This document shows positions 1 through 49,562 of a DNA stretch of 54,182 nt, one piece after another (the first letter of the stretch is position 1; each line of letters starts with the position of its first letter). A model generated the notes under the pieces. That model searched no databases and had not been told where the DNA came from. It saw only the letters and a program-made list of their open reading frames with translations. The translations under genes were made by a program, and so were the position numbers. This DNA is from a virus (lineage: Duplodnaviria > Heunggongvirae > Uroviricota > Caudoviricetes): IMG/VR virus record IMGVR_UViG_2585427735_000009; one strand, given 5' to 3'.

Positions 1-566
1 GCATTCGCCGCCCTGTTTACCGTTTCCCGTAAACCGACGTTATCGATAAAAGCCCCTTTATCCGGAATGTCTGCGCCGTTCTGCTCCCTGCGCAGGTAAC
101 GGTTATCACCTTCGCTTTTGCTGTAAACATCCAGATTATTACGGGCGGTTCCCTTATTCTCCAGGTCGGCGAGATTCTGATCCTTCGCCAGGGCATTAAC
201 GTCAGCGGGACCAAGACTGTTTTTTGTGGCAAGCGTCCCCAGACCAAGATAACCACGGGCCAGACGCTGGGCCTCCGCACCGGCATCAGCAATTTCTTTC
301 AGGTTATTTTTCCGGGAAAAGGCATTCGCAGCGATAATGGCTTTAATGGACAGCGTAAGCTGGTTTAACTGCGCCTTATCCGGCTGAATACTGGCTTCAG
401 CCAGAATATTCAGCAGTTCGGCCTGGAGAATATTCAGCCAGTCCTGACCAATCCAGCTGATACCTTTTTGTCCGTCACCTTCGGTAAACCAGGTGGTGGT
501 ATTACTCTGCGCCGGTGCCAGCGCAGGCATATTCGCCACGCCGGAATTATTATCAACATGAAACAT
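1..566 (-). CDS. Tail fibre protein, N-terminal part (CDS runs off window start)
   Basis: Hand translation from ATG at 566-564: MFHVDNNSGVANMPALAPAQSNTTTWFTEGDGQKGISWIGQDWLNILQAELLNIL..., the conserved N-terminus of Mu/P2-type tail fibres; start overlaps stop of upstream gene (TAATG). Not in ORF track because no stop in window. Confidence 0.6.
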   Translation of the reverse strand, partial: MFHVDNNSGVANMPALAPAQSNTTTWFTEGDGQKGISWIGQDWLNILQAELLNILAEASIQPDKAQLNQLTLSIKAIIAANAFSRKNNLKEIADAGAEAQRLARGYLGLGTLATKNSLGPADVNALAKDQNLADLENKGTARNNLDVYSKSEGDNRYLRREQNGADIPDKGAFIDNVGLRETVNRAAN

Positions 567-1126
567 TAAATAGTCTCCTCTTCATGGCTGTTTGCATAAA
601 CGTAAATAAACGTCTGCCATGCAGGCTTATAACGGTTCAGAATACATTCCAGCGCACCGCCTTCATAAATACGCAGCGGCGTGAGAATATCATCCAGCAC
701 ATTCATATTCCGGTAGCCGGTTTCACTGTTAATCGTGACAATACTGACCCACTGCGAATCCGGTGAGGGCTGAATGTCAATCTGATAACCAAACTCCGCC
801 GCAAACCGGATATAAAATTCACGGTTCAGCGAGGGCTTCATCCGGTATTTATTTCCGGCATAACGCTGTCGCTCCGTGAGGGTGGCTCCGGCCATATCAC
901 ACTCGGGAAGCCCGAGATAACGCTCCCAGTCTTCCAGCAGCAGGCGCGACGTGTCAGGGAAACGCTCGGCAAGCAGCTGTTTACCCGTCCAGGATACACG
1001 CGCTGTCGAATGACTGAGGCCCAGACATAATGATGCCAGTACGGATGACGGACGCTTGTCCCATGCCAGCCCGTCAGGCAGTAACTGCAACAGGGCGCGC
1101 TGATGCGGGGTCAGGGTTACAGCCAT
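566..1126 (-). CDS. Mu gp48-like baseplate/tail protein
   Basis: 186-aa ORF, position between baseplate J-like gene and tail fibre; translation resembles Mu gp48 family tail proteins; ATG at 1126. Confidence 0.65.
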   Translation of the reverse strand: MAVTLTPHQRALLQLLPDGLAWDKRPSSVLASLCLGLSHSTARVSWTGKQLLAERFPDTSRLLLEDWERYLGLPECDMAGATLTERQRYAGNKYRMKPSLNREFYIRFAAEFGYQIDIQPSPDSQWVSIVTINSETGYRNMNVLDDILTPLRIYEGGALECILNRYKPAWQTFIYVYANSHEEETI

Positions 1127-2199
1127 GTGATTTCTCCTACCGTCAGCAGCTCACTGTCTCCCGCCTGAACTGACGTCAGCGGACTGCGCACTTCAAAATC
1201 CTCCAGATTTTTCACCCCTGCCACCGCCCGCCAGAAAGACGACGGCAGAACCAGACCGCCGGGCCGGGATTCGTTATACAACAGGTCGGTCAGCGCCTGT
1301 TTTACGGCCGCCTGATTCTCCGGTGTTTTCGGGATGATCCTGATGCTGAAGGGCACCGGCTTATTGGTCAGTTTAAACACGGTCACCGTCGGCCCCAGAG
1401 GCTGTCCGACAGGCTGGCCGGTCGCCGGATCATCATGACTGCGGATATAATCCGCCACCCGCTGAACATCACCGTCACCGGGGAAAATATCCGGGTTATT
1501 ATCCTGAACAAACGTTACCCCCACGCTGCCCGCCTGCGGCCATTCCGGGCGGCACCATGCCCGCGTCACGCCCGGCACTTCACGCGCCCAGCGTTCAAAA
1601 TCATACTGCGTGCCGCCGGACGGTGGATTCTGCACCCGGAAAACCAGACGGGAAAGCAGCTCCGGCACGGTTTCCACATCCGCACCACCGGTGATCCCCG
1701 TTCCGGTCACCGTGGCCGTCTGGTTGATCCCCGCCTGCGGTGTGATAAATGTCAGTTTTGTCCCTGCCGGGGCATTCCCCGCACGACCGGCACTTTCGGC
1801 TTCCACACTGACATTCAGCGTACCGGCCTTACCGGTCAGGGAGGTGGTGATACGGTAAACCACGCCATCACTTCGCTGGAGAAGCACACCTTCCTTGATC
1901 CCCGCATCCGTGGTCAGCATCAGCTGAACCGGCCCGTCCCCCCGAGAGGCAGGCTTACGCATGACGCCCCAGAATGCACAGTGTTTCAGCAGTTCGGCTT
2001 CATCGGCTTCGGTCGGGATGATCTGACGCGCAATCCAGGCCAGATGCTCATGCTCCTGAGCAGATAACCCTGCCTGAGCGTAAGCAATGGCATTCAGGGT
2101 GGTTTCATTCACACCCGGCTGCGAGCCGGGCAGGCGCTGGCTGATATCCTGCTGTGTCTGCGTGATTAACTGTGCCAGCGGTAAAGGCTGATAAGGCAT
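1117..2199 (-). CDS. Baseplate J-like protein (Mu gp47-like)
   Basis: 360-aa ORF in baseplate block; 8-nt overlap with downstream gene typical of phage morphogenesis operons. Confidence 0.75.
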   Translation of the reverse strand: MPYQPLPLAQLITQTQQDISQRLPGSQPGVNETTLNAIAYAQAGLSAQEHEHLAWIARQIIPTEADEAELLKHCAFWGVMRKPASRGDGPVQLMLTTDAGIKEGVLLQRSDGVVYRITTSLTGKAGTLNVSVEAESAGRAGNAPAGTKLTFITPQAGINQTATVTGTGITGGADVETVPELLSRLVFRVQNPPSGGTQYDFERWAREVPGVTRAWCRPEWPQAGSVGVTFVQDNNPDIFPGDGDVQRVADYIRSHDDPATGQPVGQPLGPTVTVFKLTNKPVPFSIRIIPKTPENQAAVKQALTDLLYNESRPGGLVLPSSFWRAVAGVKNLEDFEVRSPLTSVQAGDSELLTVGEITWL

Positions 2200-2636
2200 T
2201 ACTCCCCCTTAAGATCAGCATAAAAAATCATGGGCCTCACTGAACCATCAGGCAGGGTTATGCGCACCGAAAGCGCCAGCCGCGCGTGTCCCACACGTTC
2301 TGCATGACAGACCACGGATGACGCCACGCCATCCTGACTGAGCCAGCCCAGCGCCTCATCCGCGTAAGCACGGGCACGGCTTATCACCGAGGCCAGCGTT
2401 TTTTCCCGGCTGAGAAGCCACAGACGGGAGCCAATGGGGCGCGGGCGAAAACTGTCTCCCCACCATCCCCGGCGGTCGCGCGTACCGTCAGGGATTTCAT
2501 CCGATGCCAGCGCCCGGCGGTCAGTAAACAGCGAAATCAGAACGGCCGTCAGCAGACTGTCATCCGTCAGCAGGTCGGCACCGTTCAGTTGCAGCGAACC
2601 GCATCCCTGATCCCACACAATTGCAATATCAGCCAT
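2199..2636 (-). CDS. Mu gp46-like baseplate protein
   Basis: ORF track 2199..2780; likely true start is ATG at 2636 (MADIAIVWDQGCG...), overlapping stop of upstream gene by 8 nt. Confidence 0.6.
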   Translation of the reverse strand: MADIAIVWDQGCGSLQLNGADLLTDDSLLTAVLISLFTDRRALASDEIPDGTRDRRGWWGDSFRPRPIGSRLWLLSREKTLASVISRARAYADEALGWLSQDGVASSVVCHAERVGHARLALSVRITLPDGSVRPMIFYADLKGE

Positions 2637-3243
2637 TCTCCGGCACTCCTGTCTTACTGCCTTCGCCGTTATCATGATGCACATGGCCGGAATACCGTAT
2701 CCCTGCAATAACGGCATCCGACATTGTGAACAGTCCCTGAGATTTCCCCGTACCCTCAAGCGCGAAATTACCCTTAACATGCAGGTTCTTATCCACCGTC
2801 ACATTGCCCGTAAAGGTGGCTTCCGGCGTATCCACCCGCATCCCCTCGTCGGCGTAAATCTCCAGCATTTTGCATGTCACAATAATGCGGCCATCCTTTG
2901 TTAACCGTATCCGGTGCCCCTCATGGTGATACACCCCCGTATCTCCGGCTGTGAGTCCGGTCGGGCGGCTGCGCCGGTCTTCCACCACAAGCACCACAGT
3001 CTGATCCCGCTGTCCGCCCAGACAGGCAAAAAAGGTTTCCGCACCCGGCAGGGGAACGCTGATCTGCCCGTACTGCTGGGGACGCTCCACATCATCAAAG
3101 GTTTCGCCGTCCATGCCGGTGAGCTGCACATTCTGCATTTTCAGTTCGTCATGTGTGCCGGTCAGAACGCCCCGGCCAAACAACAGGCGAATACCGCGCG
3201 TTACCGGGGCAATCAGGCGGCTGAACACTTCATCATTCATCAA
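2629..3243 (-). CDS. Baseplate assembly protein V / spike (Mu gp45-like)
   Basis: 204-aa ORF in conserved position between gp44-like and gp46-like genes. Confidence 0.7.
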   Translation of the reverse strand: MMNDEVFSRLIAPVTRGIRLLFGRGVLTGTHDELKMQNVQLTGMDGETFDDVERPQQYGQISVPLPGAETFFACLGGQRDQTVVLVVEDRRSRPTGLTAGDTGVYHHEGHRIRLTKDGRIIVTCKMLEIYADEGMRVDTPEATFTGNVTVDKNLHVKGNFALEGTGKSQGLFTMSDAVIAGIRYSGHVHHDNGEGSKTGVPENG

Positions 3244-4357
3244 AGCTGATCCCCTGTTTTTTCATCTGCTGGCGAATAAAGGCATCAACATCGTCACCGG
3301 AACCACCCCGGCCCTTACTGTCCGGCTCTGCCGGAACGATAAAGCCGTCACGCGGTGCCAGTACCAGCCGGGTGACTTCCCCGTTATGCTCATCAAGTAA
3401 AAACTCCACCTGACAGACCAGCAGTTCAGTCTGTTCTATACCGAAACGCAGGGCTGAAACACCGGTCAGCAGATTGACATCCCATAACCGGCCATCATCC
3501 CGGAACCAGCCACGCACGGTGGCAGAAAACCGTTCTGAACGGGCAATCGCACGGCGCATTTCACGCAGGGCACGCTGCCGTGCACCGGTGATGCCTGTCT
3601 GTTGATCGGCGAGGATGATTTTCGGCCGGTAGCGGCCGATCTGCTCATCACTGATGACGCCCACAGGTGCTGCCAGACGGGCGGCGGATTCGCTGTCTCC
3701 CCGTTTGCCACCACCGCGCCCGTGTCCCCGGACACGGTATTCGCTGTATCGTCCTCGCCAGTCCGTGTTGTAATCGGCATCAAGCAGGTTATCTCCCAGC
3801 ACCAGTCTGTCCGTCTGCTGGCTTCCTGCCTGGGTGAACACCAGATCGCCGTCAGCATTACTGGTCACCAGCACCCCGCGATGCCGGGCAGCACGGGTCA
3901 GCGCATCCGCCACGGTTTCTGAGTTTTCCAGCGTAAAAGAGCTGAAGGGGCGTGCAGCCGTGTCGTCGTTAACCTGCCAGCGCACGGCTATCCCGAAGGG
4001 CGCACATAAATCTGCGGCAATCTGTGCCAGCGTCCGGTTGCGCCACTGGCTGCCGGGATGGATGGCGGCACAGTCCACCAGGTCGCCGGTTTTATCCCGA
4101 CCGCTGATGCTGATCTGATGACGGGTTGCACTGATCCGCTGACTGACCTGATCCAGCCAGCCACTGATGACCGTCTGCCCGTTAATTCTGAGCGTCAGGG
4201 ACTGACCGGTCCGCAGGGCTGAGGGGATGCGCTCACCGGGCAGCATCAGCCCCAGTTCAAACGACCCGGCCAGATGCTCCAGCGAGCGACGGACGCTGAC
4301 CGTCAGCCAGCCGGAAAAAATACTGCCGCCGATATACAGTTCAATCCTGCTGCTCAC
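3233..4357 (-). CDS. Tail protein, Mu gp44 (P) / P2 gpD-like
   Basis: 374-aa ORF downstream of circularization-protein gene; translation MSSRIELYIGGSIFSGWLTVSV... typical of this family. Confidence 0.65.
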   Translation of the reverse strand: MSSRIELYIGGSIFSGWLTVSVRRSLEHLAGSFELGLMLPGERIPSALRTGQSLTLRINGQTVISGWLDQVSQRISATRHQISISGRDKTGDLVDCAAIHPGSQWRNRTLAQIAADLCAPFGIAVRWQVNDDTAARPFSSFTLENSETVADALTRAARHRGVLVTSNADGDLVFTQAGSQQTDRLVLGDNLLDADYNTDWRGRYSEYRVRGHGRGGGKRGDSESAARLAAPVGVISDEQIGRYRPKIILADQQTGITGARQRALREMRRAIARSERFSATVRGWFRDDGRLWDVNLLTGVSALRFGIEQTELLVCQVEFLLDEHNGEVTRLVLAPRDGFIVPAEPDSKGRGGSGDDVDAFIRQQMKKQGISFDE

Positions 4358-23981: not shown

Positions 23982-24374
23982 TTAATCTGTTTCCAGTGCT
24001 TTGCTACGGGCTATAGCCTCACATTCAAAAAATACCGACTCCGGCACGCGCTCTTTTAATTCACGAACAAGGAAATCATTAACGCGTTCATGACGTCTTA
24101 TATTTCTTTCCTTTTCCTCCTGGCGCAATACAGCAAGGCGGTATTCAACAGCCCGGCGTTGTTTCTGAAAGACAGCCAGTGCTTTTCTGGCAGCATTACG
24201 CCATGCATCATCGCCACATGGTGCGTATTCAAGCTGAAATTTAATCTCTTCAATAGTTTCTTTGATTTTTGCCAGCAAGCTAAGACAGTCGCTTATTGTC
24301 TCCAGCTTTTCATTATCAATATAACTTCTCACGCATTCACCTCCCGTAATTCCGGTAAAGCCGAAATATGACAC
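23982..24374 (-). CDS. Hypothetical early-region protein
   Basis: 130-aa ORF in co-directional early gene block. Confidence 0.45.
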   Translation of the reverse strand: MSYFGFTGITGGECVRSYIDNEKLETISDCLSLLAKIKETIEEIKFQLEYAPCGDDAWRNAARKALAVFQKQRRAVEYRLAVLRQEEKERNIRRHERVNDFLVRELKERVPESVFFECEAIARSKALETD

Positions 24375-25209: not shown

Positions 25210-25725
25210 TCACCCCCTGACTCGCTTTTCGGCAGCATAAAACTCATCAGACAGAATTTCGGTCATTTTCCGTTTTGCGGAATCATCTTCGCACTGAAGA
25301 TAAATCACATTGTCAACGCAGAACCAGTTCACGGGACCATACAATATTGCTGAGAAGTCAATACCCAGCCAGAACAACAGGGCATCGGTTCTGGCATACG
25401 TGACGGGCGAATATTCACGCCACAGACTGTTCAGTTCATCAGAGGCAACACGCAGGGCTTTAGGGATACGTGATGTGCGCGGTGTGCAGCTCCAGCCATT
25501 CGACGCAGTCGGTTTTCGCCATAAGTCGCGATGAAAAGGATATTTGTCCTCCGTAAAACGCAGTCCCTTAAAACAAAAACCACTGATACTGAATTCAAAT
25601 ACCGACCGGCACGCAACATTCAGCACGGCCTCAAGGCGTTTCGCCTCATCTTTTACCGTCTGGCAGTCCTGCTGGTATTTTTGCCACGCAGCCAGCGCGG
25701 AAGGGTTTGATGTTTTAAAGAACAT
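25210..25725 (-). CDS. Hypothetical early-region protein
   Basis: 171-aa ORF in co-directional early block. Confidence 0.45.
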   Translation of the reverse strand: MFFKTSNPSALAAWQKYQQDCQTVKDEAKRLEAVLNVACRSVFEFSISGFCFKGLRFTEDKYPFHRDLWRKPTASNGWSCTPRTSRIPKALRVASDELNSLWREYSPVTYARTDALLFWLGIDFSAILYGPVNWFCVDNVIYLQCEDDSAKRKMTEILSDEFYAAEKRVRG

Positions 25726-28560: not shown

Positions 28561-28788
28561 TTAGCTGACTTGTTTCGCACCAACAGAACGGCATATTCCG
28601 CTGTAAACTTCTGTCGCACCTTCGCGATCAAGTCCGGCAGATATCACCATTCGTGTGCGGTCATTAAATTCAAAAAGTAAATCGCCACATTCTTTATTTT
28701 CGGCCAGTGAAATCACCTTCACGTTATCGAAATTAACCAGGTAAAAGCGTCCGTAAATATCAGGAATATTAAATACCGCCATAATCAC
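28561..28788 (-). CDS. Hypothetical small early protein
   Basis: 75-aa ORF immediately downstream of B. Confidence 0.4.
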   Translation of the reverse strand: MIMAVFNIPDIYGRFYLVNFDNVKVISLAENKECGDLLFEFNDRTRMVISAGLDREGATEVYSGICRSVGAKQVS

Positions 28789-29726
28789 ACCTGTGAGAGT
28801 AATTCAGGGTTGGTATAAACCTCTTTAAAGGCCGCATTAATATGTTTTTCTGTCAGCGCCGCGCCTTCACCGCTGGCGGTGAGCCACGCCTGGTTAAGCG
28901 TATGTGTCAGAACGCGTAACGCTCCCGGCTTTTCAGCGATAGCCTGCATGACGGCCAGCTCGGCCTCACCACTGATCCCCCACGCCATGGCAATGGCCAG
29001 CACATCCGCCTTTTTGGCCTTGCGAAGTTGTTTTGTACGGGCAAGACGGCTGAACAGGCGCGATAAATCATCAAAGGCGCGGCGTCCACCTTTAAACAAT
29101 CCGCGCGGGTTACCAATAAGCACCATCCCGATCCCCGTGGCGTCCTGAATTGCCCGGAGTTGCTCCAGACCGTCAATACCAAGATGATCCGCCTCATCCA
29201 CAATCACCAGTCCACGCGTTCCCATCAGGCGACGGCGGATGGCGCGGGATAATGCCCCTTTGTTCGCGCGGGTGTAATCAATCCCCAGCGCATCGGCCAG
29301 CTCCAGCAGACACTCCGTGACGCTGGAGTGCGCGGGTGACAGGGTGATCATCCAGGTGTTTGGTTGCTCCTGGCAGTAATTACGGGCAGTGGCCGTTTTA
29401 CCCACACCCGGTACGCCCACAATAACGTTAATACAGCCCATCAGGCGAACCGCCTGAAACAGTGCGCGCAGCTCCTGGACTGTCTGAGTTTCCACAAACT
29501 GCGGCGGTTCCGGCAGTGCGCTTTGTTTATTCCAGTTCTCATACCAGGAGCGCAGGGAAGCAGCCACAGCAGCGTTATCGCCTTTATATTTTCCCTTACG
29601 GAAAGCCGATAATGTGCCGTCGGAAATTCCCGCCTCTCTGGCGATGGCATACTGCGTCAGTACGCCGCCATCAATAAGTTCATCAATGGTCTTGATTACA
29701 TCGTTAATATCGGTCATATTATTCAC
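28785..29726 (-). CDS. B: DNA transposition protein B (AAA+ ATPase, Mu B-like)
   Basis: 313 aa; N-terminal HTH, Walker A VGVPGVGKT, Walker B VIVDEADHL; colinear with Mu B. Confidence 0.9.
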   Translation of the reverse strand: MNNMTDINDVIKTIDELIDGGVLTQYAIAREAGISDGTLSAFRKGKYKGDNAAVAASLRSWYENWNKQSALPEPPQFVETQTVQELRALFQAVRLMGCINVIVGVPGVGKTATARNYCQEQPNTWMITLSPAHSSVTECLLELADALGIDYTRANKGALSRAIRRRLMGTRGLVIVDEADHLGIDGLEQLRAIQDATGIGMVLIGNPRGLFKGGRRAFDDLSRLFSRLARTKQLRKAKKADVLAIAMAWGISGEAELAVMQAIAEKPGALRVLTHTLNQAWLTASGEGAALTEKHINAAFKEVYTNPELLSQV

Positions 29727-29799: not shown

Positions 29800-31890
29800 T
29801 CAGGCCAGCGGATCACTTTCTTTTAATTTCGCTTCGAGCAACTGCAATCCCCGCTGGAAATTACGCTCGTATTCTTCATCAGGTTCATCGTCAGCGACCG
29901 GTTGCTGAACGGTCACCGTATTACCCACAGGGCGGTATATGTTTTCCAGCCAGGGCTCCTGCGGCTTGTGCTCCAGCACGTTGACAACCTCATCCTCGGC
30001 ATCACGGATTTTTTCCTCTGCGCGTTTACGCATGCCTTTAAGGCGCTGCTGCTGTTTGTAGTATTCCGCGCTGACAGGGAAGGCTTCGCGTTTATTGCCG
30101 TCCCATACCGCCTCGCAAATCACGCTGCCATCCGGGCGGCGCACGGTAATTCGTTCGGCATCATGAATGTCATAGCTGATAAGTACCTTACGGCCATGCT
30201 CGTCACGCAGCTCGGGCGCGTAGTAAATATTATTCAGCCAGCGTATTTCACAGCGTCTTACAGGGCGCTCCACCATCGGCCGGAACATATCCCGCAGTTC
30301 AACATCGGACAGCCATTCAATTTCCGTGTCCTCTTCCGCCAGGCGTTTTTTTCTGAACTCCGCCGGGCTGTAATGTTTACCGTTCGGCTTCATGGGTAAT
30401 TCATCGTGCGGCCGGTTGTTGTACCACTCAACACCGTCACGAATGGCATCAATCAGTTCAGACCAGGACGGTAAATCACGCATCGCTGACTGCTGCCGGG
30501 CGTTCAGCCGTTTGCCCTGTTGCAGGGCACTGAATGCCGAGCGTAAATCGCGGTTGGTTTTACGTAACGTCTCGCGATCTGCTCCTTTCCCGAAATAGGT
30601 GCGGTATTTACGGGCTATGCGCATCGGTAATGTGCGGTTAAGCCGTTCGATAATGCCCCGTCCCTGCGGATTACCGGCAATCCCTGTCGGGTGATTAATC
30701 CCCAGTCGTGGCAGTATCCCCACAATCTCCTTATCCAGGACGTCGGCGGTTTCCCCGGAGCCATTATCCGAGTAATACAGAAACGGTTTGCCATGATGGC
30801 GAATACCGTGCTGTATGGCACCGGCTACGGCGAAAACATTTTCAGCCAGGTCAAGGCTCCAGCCCACCACAAAGCGCGTGCCACCGTCGATAACAAAGGT
30901 CACTTCCGGTGCGAATGGCCGCCCGTGAACCGGGTGCGCGCATTTCAGCTTCATGCCGTGACCGTCACCAATCCAGACATAATTCACCGGCATTCTGGAC
31001 CAGTCGCGGCGCGTGAATCCCTCAAGCTGACGGTATTCACTGCCAGTTACCCGGCCTTTTTGTTTCACCACTTCCGGCAGTTTCTTCATTGCGCGGCGAA
31101 TGGTGTCATAAGAGGGCATGATATCGAGCATATAAGGCTCATCAGCGTGCCGGTGCTGCCATTCAGCAACAAAATCCTCGTAAGCCTCGGTCATTGGTCG
31201 GCCGTTTGACTGGCGATACTGCGCCAGAAATTCGGGCAGCCAGTTAATATCTTCGGCTTTTATTTCCTGGCGTTTACCCGGTGCCAGTAAAAGCAGGCGT
31301 TCAGCGGCGTTCTGTGCCTTGTTAAAGGCCGCAATCCAGCGTTTCAGCGTGATTTCACTCAACGCGCGGCTGTTTCCCTTTTTGGCGTTCGCCGTCTCAA
31401 CCATTGCCACAATGCGCTCGTCCAGTTGTGATCGTGCCAGGCTGTTAACGAGGAACCGGATAGCCTTAGCGCAACTAAAGCCGGGTTGTTGCGCGATTTT
31501 CAGCACCTCGCTGACGATCGCTATTCGTGCCTCTGCCACTTTACGTTGGTTTTCAGTCAGGGCATTGAGGCGTTCGACCATCAGTTGGGGTGATCCGCGA
31601 TATGCCTCCACCGCATCAACCACGGCAGGTGAGCGTCTGGCCTTTGTCACCACCGGAGCCGGTGATTCATCGGCTTTTTGCGTCATCAGTTGCAGGGCGT
31701 AGCGTTCACGTAATGCCTGCTGCGTCACTTCAGGTAAACAGTCGATGCTGTATTCAGTTGCTTTAGAGCCTGAGCGACGACGGGAACAACAGCTTTTCCC
31801 TTGTACGTAACGTTGTAATGCCTGGCGAATACCTTTTGTTGTAGCAGGCATTCCGGGCGCGCCAATCAGTTCTTTTGCAATGACATACAT
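29800..31890 (-). CDS. A: Mu-type DDE transposase A
   Basis: 696-aa ORF between ner and B; size and position of Mu A. Confidence 0.88.
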   Translation of the reverse strand: MYVIAKELIGAPGMPATTKGIRQALQRYVQGKSCCSRRRSGSKATEYSIDCLPEVTQQALRERYALQLMTQKADESPAPVVTKARRSPAVVDAVEAYRGSPQLMVERLNALTENQRKVAEARIAIVSEVLKIAQQPGFSCAKAIRFLVNSLARSQLDERIVAMVETANAKKGNSRALSEITLKRWIAAFNKAQNAAERLLLLAPGKRQEIKAEDINWLPEFLAQYRQSNGRPMTEAYEDFVAEWQHRHADEPYMLDIMPSYDTIRRAMKKLPEVVKQKGRVTGSEYRQLEGFTRRDWSRMPVNYVWIGDGHGMKLKCAHPVHGRPFAPEVTFVIDGGTRFVVGWSLDLAENVFAVAGAIQHGIRHHGKPFLYYSDNGSGETADVLDKEIVGILPRLGINHPTGIAGNPQGRGIIERLNRTLPMRIARKYRTYFGKGADRETLRKTNRDLRSAFSALQQGKRLNARQQSAMRDLPSWSELIDAIRDGVEWYNNRPHDELPMKPNGKHYSPAEFRKKRLAEEDTEIEWLSDVELRDMFRPMVERPVRRCEIRWLNNIYYAPELRDEHGRKVLISYDIHDAERITVRRPDGSVICEAVWDGNKREAFPVSAEYYKQQQRLKGMRKRAEEKIRDAEDEVVNVLEHKPQEPWLENIYRPVGNTVTVQQPVADDEPDEEYERNFQRGLQLLEAKLKESDPLA

Positions 31891-32140: not shown

Positions 32141-32320
32141 ACTTCCTCTATTCTAAAAAGTTACCCGCGCGGATATTCGTGCGGATATCTGTACGGGTAA
32201 ATAATGCATCACCAAAAATACCAAATCAAGGTATTTTTGGTATTTTTGCTTTTATCCTTATTTTTCAATTGGATAAATAGAAAGAAACCTTTCCTTAGAA
32301 AAGCACCAAGAGGTATCTTT
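32141..32320. promoter_or_regulatory. Divergent early/repressor control region with operator-like repeats
   Basis: Perfect 11-bp inverted repeat CCAAAAATACC-N7-GGTATTTTTGG at 32212..32240, adjacent direct repeat GGTATTTTTG, and direct repeat GCGGATAT at ~32169 and ~32181, between divergent ner and c. Confidence 0.5.
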
Positions 32321-32851
32321 ATGTCGCAGGGAAAAGAACCTGTTATTGAACGTATTGGAATGCTTACAAAGCGCTACCCTTCAAGAAGTGCAGCTGCCAG
32401 AGCGTGGGGAATCAATATCAACACATTAAACAGCTATTTCAAGGGAGGACAAACACAACCAGCCCCCAGAGAAAGTATCCTTATACGAATTTCTGAAAGT
32501 GAAGGCGTTAGTCTTGAGTGGCTTAAAGAGGGCAAGGGTGAATTACCAAACGATATTGGTATTTATGGTAATTTTGGTTGTTCTGGTGATAAGGGAGATC
32601 AGCTTACACAGATGCTTTCATTCCTTACGAAAGACGAACGAGAACAGTTAACCAATCTCCTTGCTCGCAAAGGTGTAGAGACGGTTCTGACACTGCTGAA
32701 TAAAGAAAACCAGGATTTATTACAACTAGAAGGCAGGAAGCGCCTGGCTGCGTTGATGATTGTAGATATGCCAGACGATTGCGTCAGAGAGATTTTGGAA
32801 AAAACCGAGACAAGTAGGCAATCAAATCCGGTAGAATCTAAAGCGGGTTAG
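32321..32851 (+). CDS. c: Mu c-type repressor
   Basis: ATG at 32321 with AAGAGGT RBS (MSQGKEPVIERIGMLTKRY...); divergent from ner/A/B; the upstream extension in the ORF track is probably not translated. Confidence 0.75.
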   Translation: MSQGKEPVIERIGMLTKRYPSRSAAARAWGININTLNSYFKGGQTQPAPRESILIRISESEGVSLEWLKEGKGELPNDIGIYGNFGCSGDKGDQLTQMLSFLTKDEREQLTNLLARKGVETVLTLLNKENQDLLQLEGRKRLAALMIVDMPDDCVREILEKTETSRQSNPVESKAG

Positions 32852-33010
32852 TTTGGCGAGGCTGGCCCGTATGTTAGTTGCCATATAGATTTAATGAAGT
32901 TTTAAACGCTTTAAAAAGTTGAGATCGCAGTATCAAAAGTTTTGCCGATTTTAGAATAAACGATTAATTATTGCACAATCGATATCAAATAGACTTTAAG
33001 CGCTCATCCA

Positions 33011-33101
33011 GACATCACCTGTTTTATTTCAGTATCTTACAGGTGATTTCACCTCCTTTCACTAAAACCCTCGTTGGTATCAAATGATTCACCTGGTTAC
33101 A
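33011..33101. repeat. Prophage terminal region with repeated TCACCT(G)/CAGGTGA motifs (putative transposase binding sites, attL-like end)
   Basis: TCACCTG at 33015, CAGGTGA at 33040, TCACCT at 33049, TCACCTGG at 33089; element ends ...GGTTACA at 33101 (TG on minus strand) immediately before dbpA sequence. Confidence 0.5.
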
Positions 33102-33609
33102 CGGTAGCGCCCGTGTACTGGTTGCTACTGATGTTGCTGCGCGTGGTCTGGATATTAAATCGCTTGAGCTGGTGGTGAACTTTGAGCTGGCGTGGGACCC
33201 TGAAGTTCATGTACATCGCATCGGTCGTACAGCTCGTGCAGGAAATAGCGGTCTGGCGATCAGTTTCTGTGCTCCGGAAGAAGCACAGCGGGCCAATATC
33301 ATTTCTGACATGTTGCAGATAAAACTTAACTGGCAAACGCCGCCAGCTAATAGTTCCATTGTGCCGCTGGAAGCAGAAATGGCAACGTTGTGTATCGATG
33401 GCGGGAAAAAAGCCAAAATGCGCCCGGGTGATGTATTAGGTGCACTGACAGGAGATATCGGGCTTAATGGCGCAGATATTGGCAAAATCGCCGTGCATCC
33501 GGCGCATGTCTATGTCGCGGTCCGTCAGGCTGTTGCTCATAAAGCATGGAAACAGTTACAGGGCGGGAAGATTAAAGGAAAAACGTGCCGGGTGCGGTTA
33601 TTAAAATAA
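33102..33609 (+). pseudogene. dbpA: 3' fragment of ATP-dependent RNA helicase gene dbpA, truncated by prophage insertion
   Basis: In-frame translation from 33103: [47 protein letters not shown]... (DEAD-box motifs V and VI) to stop at 33609; no N-terminal helicase core upstream, phage DNA instead. Confidence 0.85.
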
Positions 33610-33737: not shown

Positions 33738-34673
33738 TTATTTCACTTCAACCACATTCAGTCGTAACTCATCCAACTGATTTTCATCTTCTTCTGGCTG
33801 CCAGCCCGCCGGTTGTAGTGGGATCTCTTCGCGATCAAACGCCAGATCACCCCCGTTAACCACTTCAGAACCGTGGGTAATGCCTTTAAAATCGAACAGG
33901 TTGGTATCGCACAGATGCGACGGCACCACATTCTGCATCGCGCTGAACATCGTCTCGATACGCCCTGGATAACGTTTATCCCAGTCACGCAACATGTCAG
34001 CAATCACCTGACGTTGCAGGTTAGGCTGTGAACCGCACAGGTTGCACGGAATAATCGGGAACGCTTTTGCATCGGCAAATCGCTGAATATCTTTCTCGCG
34101 GCAGTAGGCCAGCGGACGAATAACGATATGTTTGCCATCATCGCTCATCAGTTTCGGAGGCATACCTTTCATCTTGCCGCCGTAGAACATATTTAAGAAC
34201 AACGTTTGCAGGATATCGTCACGATGGTGACCCAACGCGATCTTCGTCGCCCCCAGTTCCGTTGCGGTACGATAAAGGATACCGCGACGAAGGCGAGAAC
34301 ACAGTGAGCAAGTGGTTTTGCCCTCTGGAATCTTCTCTTTCACGATACCGTAAGTATTCTCTTCAACAATCTTGTACTCAACGCCCAGCTTTTCAAGATA
34401 CTCGGGCAGAACGTGTTCCGGGAAGCCCGGTTGCTTTTGATCGAGGTTAACAGCCACCAGCGAAAAATTGATTGGCGCGCTTTGCTGCAAATTGCGCAGA
34501 ATCTCCAGCATGGTATAGCTGTCTTTACCCCCGGAGAGGCAAACCATGATGCGATCGCCTTCTTCAATCATATTGAAGTCAGCAATGGCTTCGCCCACGT
34601 TACGACGCAGACGTTTTTGTAATTTGTTCAGGTTGTATTGTTCTTTCTTTGTAATTTGTTGATTTTCTTGCAT
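33738..34673 (-). CDS. ttcA: tRNA 2-thiocytidine biosynthesis protein TtcA
   Basis: 311 aa; PP-loop motif SGGKDS and paired CxxC motifs; sits beside dbpA and intR as I recall the E. coli K-12 layout. Confidence 0.92.
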
Positions 34674-34724: not shown

Positions 34725-35960
34725 CTACGATAACCGCGCATTCAACATGGCTATCTGTTCGTCGTTCATGTCATCAATCCACATACCGTAAATTTCATAC
34801 ACCATCTGCGCAGTTTCATGCCCCATTTGGCTGGCTATAAATGCCGGGTTCGCTCCTGCCGTCAACAGCCAGCAGGCAAAAGTATGCCGCGTATGGTACG
34901 GATTACGGCGGCGAATACCAGCACGTTTTACTGCTGCATTCCACCTTGCCCCCAAACTGCTTACCGAGTAATAAGGTTTTTGTTTTCCGTTACACACCCT
35001 GGGCATGAAAACAAAATGCAGTTTTTGCTTTTCGGTTCTGCCGTACTCCCGATGATAAAAGGTGATTTCGCTTTTGCGATGATGCCCGGTCAGTTTGTAT
35101 TGCTCCTTCAGTGCTTCAAGAGCAGGCTGCAGTAGTGTTACTGTTCGGATCCCGGCATTTGTTTTTGGGGGACCGAACATATCAAGTATCGTCAGGTTTC
35201 TTCTGACATTCACTATTCCCTTTTCGAGATCCACATCCTCCCACGCCAGAGCTGCCAGTTCCCCGTGACGAAGTCCTGAGTAAACGGCAAATTTCCACAA
35301 GTTCTGGCTCTGTCCTTTTTCACTTTCCATTAATGCATTGAATTCTGTTTTAGATAACGGATCAGGCTTTATTCTGTTTCGCTGTAATTTTTTTACTCCT
35401 TCAAATGGTTTGGTTGATATAAATCCCGACTGATACGCAAAACGCAACAGCGAACAGAGCAGGGCGATATAGTTATCAACTGTGCGCACGGTTCTTCCTT
35501 TTTTGTTGGATCTTGGATTATCCAGGTAAAGCGTTTCTCCATGCAGCAGTTCATTCCGGTAGTTTAAGATATCGCTATAACGAATATGTGATATCGGGGT
35601 ACTTTCACAAATTATTATTCTGAGTGTTTTTAATTGTGATTTCGTTTTCTTCATTGTGTTTGTTGTTAACTCTGTCTCTTTAATTTTTGTCCAGATATCA
35701 CAAAGCTCTCCGAACGTTTTTATGACTCTCGTTGTCACCATTTTTGCCCCAGTGCTGGACTGGGGAAAACGTCTTAAATACTCAAATTCACCGGAGTTTA
35801 TTTCATGAACTATCAGCGCTCTTAAATTTCCGGCCTTTTTAATATTACTGTTTGTAATCTCCCAGCCTTTTAATGTTTCCCGACATCGTTTTCCTCGAAA
35901 CATGAACCAGATGCGAATGTATCTACCTCTAATCTCGACACCTGTTGGTAATTTAGACAT
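34725..35960 (-). CDS. intR: Tyrosine integrase (Rac IntR-like)
   Basis: 411 aa; C-terminal catalytic region with RHTFA...H..Y-type residues; adjacent to ttcA attachment site. Confidence 0.92.
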   Translation of the reverse strand: MSKLPTGVEIRGRYIRIWFMFRGKRCRETLKGWEITNSNIKKAGNLRALIVHEINSGEFEYLRRFPQSSTGAKMVTTRVIKTFGELCDIWTKIKETELTTNTMKKTKSQLKTLRIIICESTPISHIRYSDILNYRNELLHGETLYLDNPRSNKKGRTVRTVDNYIALLCSLLRFAYQSGFISTKPFEGVKKLQRNRIKPDPLSKTEFNALMESEKGQSQNLWKFAVYSGLRHGELAALAWEDVDLEKGIVNVRRNLTILDMFGPPKTNAGIRTVTLLQPALEALKEQYKLTGHHRKSEITFYHREYGRTEKQKLHFVFMPRVCNGKQKPYYSVSSLGARWNAAVKRAGIRRRNPYHTRHTFACWLLTAGANPAFIASQMGHETAQMVYEIYGMWIDDMNDEQIAMLNARLS

Positions 35961-49322: not shown

Positions 49323-49562
49323 GTCAGACTTACAGCCAACTGACTGTCTCTTATTATTCAAAACATAATAATGTTAGGTCCGCTTATCGCACATCAGGGA
49401 CAACCATACTCAAATCTCCCACATTGCAGGAGATTTGAGTGTGAACACGTCACCGTGGAACAAAGACTGTATCATCGGTCAAAAAAGACCTGGTTATCTA
49501 GCAAAAACTTTTAACATACCAACAAACTTAATTTATTTAAATGCTATTAATACAACTAATGT

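Follow-up and report, generated by a model that had tools for sequence, protein, structure and literature searches.

Positions 32141 to 32320 of the window (i.e., the whole 54,182-nucleotide [nt] stretch of viral DNA analyzed here) probably form a two-way control region, in which two separate operators, one for the c repressor (palindrome A) and one for Ner (32161 to 32200), would act on a predicted early promoter that we named Pe by analogy with Mu. The interval (180 bp; AT-rich, with a G+C content of 34%) coincides exactly with the spacer that separates a leftward ner-like gene from the rightward repressor gene c. Sequence features, the geometry of the promoter, patterns of conservation and covariation, and linkage to the regulator genes were observed; from these we infer which protein binds where, along with looping and autoregulation. 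As a sequence feature, the interval is an ordinary phage operator region from an ordinary kind of phage switch.

In agreement with the initial annotation, which had placed the interval in the divergent region between ner and c that controls the switch of a Mu-like prophage, the neighboring genes encode Ner-, MuA-, and MuB-like proteins (Table 1). We placed the left end of the prophage at 33101, where similarity stops in comparisons with five relatives inserted at other chromosomal sites, which puts 875 bp between this end and the center of palindrome A. The prophage is inserted within dbpA (junction 33101/33102), of which only the 3' part is found past the junction, and it adjoins ttcA and a Rac-type integrase (entries at 33172 to 33609, 33738 to 34673, and 34725 to 35960). 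Insertion sites of the relatives (i.e., ycjT, a fimbrial usher, and the dsbA region) are unrelated, as is expected for transposition. A terminator-like hairpin is located over the c stop codon (32843 to 32870, plus strand).

Across the ner-c region, the window is 100% identical to E. coli strain TOE17. Screening of 5,426 complete E. coli genomes yielded 108 records of close relatives (95 to 99% identical) and 74 records of a second type, which shows ~84% identity in a stretch comprising ner, the spacer, and the first 50 codons of c. About 200 of the 5,426 genomes carry Mu-like prophages of this group; many of these genomes are from Shiga-toxin-producing strains, and some copies are inserted in Stx phages and annotated as "Mu-like phage." More distant relatives comprise Yersinia phage Tongde, Pseudomonas phage VW-6B, a Cedecea contig (the sole locus obtained from a scan of genome contigs), and ~20 IMG/VR contigs. 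The window prophage presumably belongs to the E. coli Mu-like group usually called Sp18-like. Our literature search found no description of the switch or operator of this group. The comparative set consisted of 30 distinct ner-c spacers, 29 of which were anchored on the palindrome center for promoter analysis; its lineages are cited below by their L numbers.

Table 1. Coordinates of genes, predicted promoter elements, and candidate regulatory sites in the window
Feature	Position	Strand	Remarks
MuB-like protein (ATPase)	28785–29726	−	Same strand as ner, after the transposase gene
MuA-like transposase	29800–31890	−	Mu-transpos_C and HTH_Tnp_Mu_1 domains; same strand as ner, after ner
ner-like gene, 82 aa	31892–32140	−	Pfam HTH_35 (2.5e-19) and phrog_769
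Conserved leader CTAAAAAG	32153–32160		Between the putative Ner boxes and the ner ribosome-binding site
Putative Ner operator, 40-bp quasi-palindrome	32161–32200		Four half-sites; 19-nt arms, 79% complementary
Half-sites of putative Ner operator	32161–32167; 32170–32176; 32182–32189; 32194–32200		TTACCCG; CGGATAT; CGGATATC; CGGGTAA
Predicted Pe −10, CATTAT	32201–32206	−	−10-like hexamer 17 to 18 bp from −35 in 28/29 related spacers
Palindrome A, left arm ACCAAAAATACC	32211–32222		Within the 17-bp Pe spacer
Predicted Pe −35, TTGATT	32224–32229	−	Corresponds to the palindrome spacer; conserved position in 29/29 relatives
Palindrome A, right arm GGTATTTTTGGT	32230–32241		At −36 to −47 of Pe
Third half-site copy GGTATTTTTGC	32239–32249	+	9 bp past the right arm; −45 to −55 of Pe
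Conserved block TTTCAATTGGATA	32263–32275	+	Weak IHF-like match, 7/9 specified positions
Palindrome B, GAAAAGCACC-aaga-GGTATCTTT	32298–32320		Overlaps the c ribosome-binding site; degenerate (6/9), non-coding
Repressor gene c, 176 aa	32321–32851	+	phrog_3037 at 7e-61
Distal tandem half-sites GGTATTTATGG (32558–32568) and GGTAATTTTGG (32567–32577)	32558–32577	+	Inside c, linker-coding part
Prophage left end (...TTACA, then host dbpA)	33099–33101		Similarity to relatives ends

Palindrome A consists of CCAAAAATACC (32212 to 32222) and GGTATTTTTGG (32230 to 32240), which form an inverted repeat around the spacer AAATCAA. We confirmed the perfect 11-bp inverted repeat with a 7-bp spacer that had initially been noticed at 32212 to 32240, and we found that it extends by 1 bp to a perfect 12-bp repeat (Table 1). 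The tandem repetition of the right arm also creates a second register (13 bp with a 10-bp spacer): GGTATTTTTG is present at 32230 to 32239 and again at 32239 to 32248, i.e., with a 9-bp period, and relatives have two to three tandem units at the position of this third copy. The direct repeat of one arm, which had been described as following the palindrome, is likewise present, and the abutting repeat is partly strain specific. More specifically, 115 other E. coli genomes with a full-length match carry GGTATTTTTGGTATTTTGG(C/A)TAATTTTTGC, where the window lacks 10 bp. This deletion (at ~32247, between 32239 to 32249 and the downstream T-tract) moves all downstream sequence by approximately one helical turn relative to the palindrome, and the window form was found only in strain TOE17. 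The half-site centers of palindrome A are separated by ~18 to 19 bp, a distance unlike the one-turn spacing that is usual for dimers of helix-turn-helix proteins.

A slippage-type deletion between T-tract units in one strain only, as well as the 34% G+C content of the region, would fit an origin without function, in which replication slippage or template switching perfected quasi-palindromes in low-complexity, AT-rich DNA. We consider this extremely improbable. From dinucleotide shuffles of the whole 54-kb window, 0.03 inverted repeats of this kind (12 bp, perfect, loop of ≤12) are expected, versus 2 observed, and shuffles of the 180-bp spacer contained a perfect 12-bp repeat in 0.03% of cases and an 11-bp repeat in 0.17%, statistics that argue against chance. 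Moreover, the geometry relative to the promoter is kept across genera, and the motif recurs at three places in lineage-specific form; pure slippage would cover the strain-specific deletion but not the conserved geometry. The other perfect 12-bp short-loop inverted repeat in the window is ACTCAAATCTCC ... GGAGATTTGAGT (49408 to 49419 and 49429 to 49440). A sub-threshold Rfam match to the IS128 sRNA at 32200 to 32316 on the plus strand (22.7 bits versus a gathering score of 80; E = 0.05) was judged to be a chance match in AT-rich DNA.

The palindrome is always centered on the −35 element of Pe, as seen in spacers from E. coli, Yersinia, Pseudomonas, Cedecea, and the IMG/VR contigs. Across the 29 anchored spacers, this element reads TTGAyw in nearly all cases (TTGACA in L023, L025, and L062), the exceptions being TTTACG in L019 and TTGGTT in L009, and in 28 of the 29 a −10-like hexamer (A at position 2 and T at position 6) is placed 17 bp from it, or 18 bp in the L003 group. 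The left arm is contained wholly within the 17-bp promoter spacer (32207 to 32223), and transcription is predicted to start at ~32194, leaving a leader of ~54 nt to ner. As in a Mu-type control region, palindrome A overlaps the predicted early promoter, a geometry that is kept in 28 of the 29 relatives, and the site is positioned between c and ner at the above-mentioned distance from the left end. A protein bound to the palindrome arms would, judging from this layout, exclude RNA polymerase from the predicted Pe. The window promoter matches the consensus at 8 of 12 positions (10 of 12 in several relatives); it was absent from the list produced by a simple sigma-70 scan of the window and was found only via the relatives. 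We also sought the repressor promoter, Pc, by manual inspection of the spacer alignment and did not locate it there; the candidates TTGGTA-16-TATTTT (32237 to 32264) and a −10 in GGATAAAT (32271 to 32278) were rejected as weak and not conserved.

The −35 hexamer and the T-tracts account for some of the conservation, and the most invariant part of the palindrome is its center, AAATCAAGGTATTTT. One alternative is that the region represents promoter architecture only, with the A/T-tracts at −35 acting as an UP element, intrinsically bent DNA, or an IHF site (AATCAAGGTATTT) that stimulates Pe in the way IHF does in Mu, and with the repressor binding elsewhere. In most lineages, 8 of 9 positions of the center (32224 to 32236) agree with the IHF consensus WATCAANNNNTTR; phased A-tracts contributed by the right arm and the third copy occupy −36 to −55 of Pe; and the Mu operator region has an IHF site (PMC3145075; Mu sequence TATCAACGCGTTA). 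However, the IHF-like core is lost in L019, L023, L025, and L062, in which the dyad is kept, and IHF-type matches are common in shuffled sequences (0.4 per region). An UP element, for its part, would leave unexplained the matching arm within the promoter spacer, the covariation of the arms, their linkage to the c allele, and the copies at and inside c. We therefore regard promoter architecture as an unlikely sole explanation, and an IHF site or UP element could coexist with the operator. Further along the spacer, the conserved block at 32263 to 32275 matches WATCAANNNNTTR at 8 to 9 of 9 positions, at the aligned position, in 11 of 23 spacers (~12 if the offset site of L029 is included), relative to a background of 0.4 per shuffled region.

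Symmetry of the palindrome is retained in lineages in which its sequence has changed. In the 13-nt register, the window scores 12/13 (the 12-bp arms themselves being perfect), as does L067 (ACTCAAAAGAAAC), and the palindromes of L018 (CACGAAAAATACC) and L062 (ACATAAAAAGAAC) are perfect (13/13), that of L018 with a compensatory C-to-G and G-to-C change. L019 has kept the arms of the window with a changed spacer, and several lineages show only 8 to 9/13 complementarity. Among 20 lineages, the mean arm match was 9.9 of 13 within a lineage versus 9.0 of 13 across lineages, and the observed arm-match sum was reached in 2 of 5,000 permutations (5 of 5,000 when ten representative lineages were used). 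Dyad symmetry that is kept through sequence change, as in L018, L062, and the window, is a property expected of a repressor operator.

Compensatory changes also preserve an RNA stem in L018, L062, and L067, and the plus-strand palindrome with its T-run could accordingly be read as an intrinsic terminator, an attenuator, or a 5' stabilizing stem toward c. A terminator scan flags 32211 to 32241 plus ATTTTTGCTT, the predicted fold has a free energy of −16.6 kcal/mol (z = −4.8), and palindromes A and B of one phage can differ while each remains internally symmetric. Several observations nevertheless make an RNA hairpin a distinctly improbable basis for the conservation: (i) upstream of the palindrome there is no conserved plus-strand promoter or plus-strand transcription unit, only antisense ner; (ii) the palindrome is outside the Pe transcript, since the Pe start is downstream of it; (iii) a U-run is present, but the stem comprises 8 A-T and only 4 G-C pairs (of 12), and many lineages have 3 to 5 mismatches that are not G-U; (iv) neither the third tandem copy nor the copies inside c would be needed; and (v) the hairpin has no Rfam family match.

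Linkage of the palindrome to the regulator genes, which bears directly on the proposed repressor operator, is apparent in two independent mosaic pairs, i.e., window versus L003 and L018 versus L062. Both pairs are 89 to 100% identical per 100 nt through the transposase N-terminus (with one stretch of 83% in window/L003) and ~100% identical through ner and the putative Ner boxes, and both diverge at the left arm and onward through c. For window/L003, near-identity runs through the leader and the GCGGATAT boxes to GGGTAAATAAT (32205), and the −10 element CATTAT is the point where identity ends. The transposases of these two prophages are 97% identical over their N-terminal 200 residues, the first 72 being identical, whereas their c proteins are only 46% identical. 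Given that divergence begins at the left arm in both mosaic pairs, palindrome and c form one inherited unit, and the GCGGATAT array goes together with ner; co-inheritance of a site with c as an immunity module, here at two mosaic junctions, is again expected of a repressor operator. Likewise, half-sites correspond to repressor types: recognition helices ending in NSYF/KSYF are found with the half-site AAAAA(T/C)ACC, and those ending in (N/Q/K)NYY with AAAAGAAC. There is little variation in the recognition helix, in contrast to many positions of the arms. Two strains, 97-3250 (NZ_CP027599.1, 817158 to 817836 and 3375415 to 3375614) and 96_1414B (NZ_CP074781.1), each carry one window-type and one L003-type prophage, the ner modules of which are assumed to be alike from the window/L003 comparison. 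Two immunity types in one chromosome are what heteroimmune phages would allow.

The same pairs inform another alternative, in which the T-tract repeats form a transposition enhancer bound by the N-terminal winged helix of the MuA-like transposase, in the manner of the Mu internal activation sequence. The operator repeats of Mu (consensus CTTTTPyNPu) are likewise T-tracts of the CTTTT type. In addition, the transposase retains the Mu DNA-binding domain (HTH_Tnp_Mu_1, 28.5 bits), and the repeats are ~0.9 kb from the left end, like the Mu enhancer (PMC3145075). We give this alternative little credence. The half-sites differ between window and L003 despite the near-identity of their transposase N-termini, the same holds at the DNA level for L018 and L062, and the motif follows c rather than A. 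Nor does the spacer contain a Mu-type array: CTTTTYNR has only two matches there (at 32153 and 32296), and its matches across the window (66 observed versus 40 expected) form no cluster in the spacer.

Additional copies of the half-site are located near palindrome A. With ≤1 mismatch allowed, GGTATTTTTGG has 7 matches in the 54 kb, 5 of which are within 32212 to 32577. The other two are one-mismatch copies at 24026 to 24036 (minus strand) and 25674 to 25684 (plus strand), upstream of the MuB-like gene; approximately two such stray copies are expected by chance. Inside c, the distal pair shows the same 9-bp period as palindrome A, and lineage-matched tandem units are found at the equivalent place in c, ~330 to 360 bp from the palindrome, in most other lineages (e.g., a perfect CCAAAAATACC in Tongde and CAAAAGAAC twice in STEC388). 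The distal sites of GAAC-type lineages could partly reflect the codons of a Lys/Glu-rich linker. In the window lineage, these sites run in the reverse direction and code for GIYGNFG, which rules out Lys/Glu codon bias as their source.

Palindrome B, at the start of c, has the family consensus AAAAGAACC-N4-GGTTCTTTT, and nearly all relatives have it at, or within, the 5' end of c. Its spacing (13 bp) differs from that of palindrome A, and its right half follows the lineage type. In the relatives, c starts ~27 nt further upstream (ATG at ~32294; M-x-K-E...G-S-F), and in the window lineage, in which translation starts at 32321, this ancestral ATG is now CTT or ATT; owing to this shift, the palindrome at the c start is non-coding in the window lineage. 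The sequence GAAA(A)GnACC is present in three direct copies (32280 to 32289, 32298 to 32307, and 32331 to 32340), which are conserved in every lineage irrespective of c type; they extend over the former ribosome-binding site, the left arm of palindrome B, and the G-K-E-P codons. The right arm of palindrome B could pair in RNA with any of these copies.

On the ner side of Pe, GCGGATAT is present at 32169 to 32176 and 32181 to 32188, and both copies are held by a 12-bp tandem repeat, CGCGCGGATATT / CGTGCGGATATC (32166 to 32177 and 32178 to 32189; 10/12 identical). The initial annotation had listed these copies as a direct repeat. They are indeed present in the window, where they read as a direct repeat because GATATC is self-complementary, but family-wide they are the inner pair of a four-half-site quasi-palindrome. 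The half-site positions are fixed in all relatives, with the consensus TTAyCCG-N2-CGGrTAA ... GGTTATC-N4-yGGATAA (family half-sites TTAyCCG, CGGrTAw, (G)GTTATC or GGATATC, and yGGrTAA), and in Tongde the same inner positions form a perfect 20-bp palindrome, GGATAACCGCGCGGTTATCC.

This array is most likely the Ner operator. The quasi-palindrome spans the predicted Pe start (~32194) to about +34, a location between the start site and ner, and the adjoining gene encodes an HTH_35 protein. The boxes are identical in window/L003 and in L018/L062, pairs that share ner and differ in c, and they differ between Ner types (GGATAT versus GGATAA/GGTTAT). Because the array covers the Pe start, follows the Ner type, and resembles the Ner operators known from Mu and D108, we assigned it to Ner. 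Binding of the repressor to the GCGGATAT boxes was rejected, as the boxes are identical where c differs, and binding of Ner to palindrome A was rejected, as Ner is identical in window and L003 and the palindrome differs. Adjacent to the boxes, the leader CTAAAAAG (minus strand CTTTTTAG) is near-invariant across genera (~25 of 30 related loci); it happens to match the Mu Rep consensus.

Sequence matches of the repressor itself fall into two parts. Residues 20 to 78 match CI-type helix-turn-helix repressor PHROGs, and residues 91 to 174 match phrog_7148, the Mu Rep family (1.5e-10). Mu c, in turn, scores 6.9e-73 against phrog_7148; its N-terminal part hits the transposase family phrog_310, and phrog_3037, the family of the window repressor, is hit by its C-terminal half. 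By BLASTP, residues 95 to 171 of the window repressor align with residues 105 to 183 of Mu c (29% identity), and hhalign aligned residues 46 to 71 to the final helices of the 434 repressor (77% probability, 26 columns; 434 sequence entered by hand). The 176-aa protein had no significant Pfam match, including no HTH_Tnp_Mu_1 at its N-terminus, and that N-terminus did not resemble the one of the transposase encoded by the same phage; a winged helix homologous to MuA domain I-alpha, which a Mu-type repressor has, was not found. By these matches, the repressor is a hybrid of a predicted CI/434-like helix-turn-helix N-terminus and a Mu-Rep-like C-terminus. Thus, the initial description of a c-type repressor applies to the C-terminal half, which is Mu c-like, but not to the DNA-binding domain, which is of the CI/434 helix-turn-helix type rather than a winged helix.

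Taken as a switch, these elements would operate as follows. Pe would be read leftward, from the −35 TTGATT over a 17-bp spacer and the −10 CATTAT to the start at ~32194. The c repressor on palindrome A would keep RNA polymerase off this promoter, and ner, A, and B would be silent in the lysogen when Pe is occluded. The weaker half-sites at 32298 to 32320 and 32558 to 32577 probably serve cooperative binding or looping by an oligomeric repressor, and they probably also contribute to autoregulation of c. During lytic growth, Ner on 32161 to 32200 may turn down early transcription. The operator function originally suspected for the repeats has gained comparative support from promoter overlap, dyad covariation, linkage to the regulator genes, and the extra half-site copies.

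A bolder version, which we offer tentatively and consider rather doubtful, would have a domain-swapped repressor, a CI/434-type helix-turn-helix fused to the oligomerization and C-terminal region of Mu Rep, bind three half-site clusters (at Pe, at the c start, and a distal tandem pair inside the linker-coding part of c) through a loop of ~350 bp, with the immunity module (c and the palindrome) and the Ner/transposase module recombining freely at the Pe −10 and giving rise to heteroimmune co-residents. If so, the repressor would no longer share its DNA-binding domain with the transposase, and binding of all three clusters would loop DNA around the repressor's own promoter. For experimental work, the proposed positions of Pe, the repressor operator, and the Ner operator provide direct targets for reporter and footprint experiments, and the operator positions help to explain how two such prophages can share one cell.

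Comparison with Mu reveals a shared plan with different regulatory parts. The order c, control region, ner, A, B is the same, the proposed operator overlaps the predicted early promoter, several T-tract-containing repeats are present (some of them within the 5' part of c), and the C-terminal half of the repressor is homologous to Mu Rep. In contrast, the repressor here has a CI/434-type helix-turn-helix, whereas Mu Rep has a winged helix shared with MuA, and the main site, a single long palindrome around the −35, contrasts with the CTTTTPyNPu arrays of Mu. The Mu operator has O1-O2-O3 with an IHF site, Pe, and Pc, whereas the IHF candidates here are weak. Also unlike in Mu, the half-sites follow the c allele while the transposase is unchanged, so that the repressor does not have to compete with the transposase for its sites; the Mu rule, in which a DNA-binding domain common to both proteins makes them rivals for the same sites, does not have to apply to all Mu-like phages. 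The Mu operator/enhancer is ~1 kb from the left end (PMC3145075).

The putative Ner operator resembles its counterparts in Mu and D108 in that ~12-bp repeats lie between the Pe start and an adjoining Ner-family gene and that the site follows the ner allele; it differs in its half-site (CGGrTAw) and in having four half-sites in a 40-bp quasi-palindrome. The Ner operators of both phages are found downstream of the Pe start, as two 12-bp repeats in Mu and as a pair of 11-bp inverted repeats in D108. With the lambdoid/434 OR, the region shares a 434-like helix-turn-helix repressor and dyad sites in several copies that overlap a promoter in a divergent switch. Unlike in that system, the arms are 12 to 13 bp with centers ~18 to 19 bp apart (versus 14- to 17-bp operators), there is no cro, and the C-terminal half of the repressor is Mu-Rep-like instead of a LexA/S24-type cleavage domain. 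Finally, CI of coliphage 186 uses distal flanking sites ~300 bp from pR. The proteins are unrelated, the distal site here is within the repressor's coding sequence, and looping is something that we infer, but both systems have a primary operator at the lytic promoter and weaker distal sites that an oligomeric repressor could bridge.
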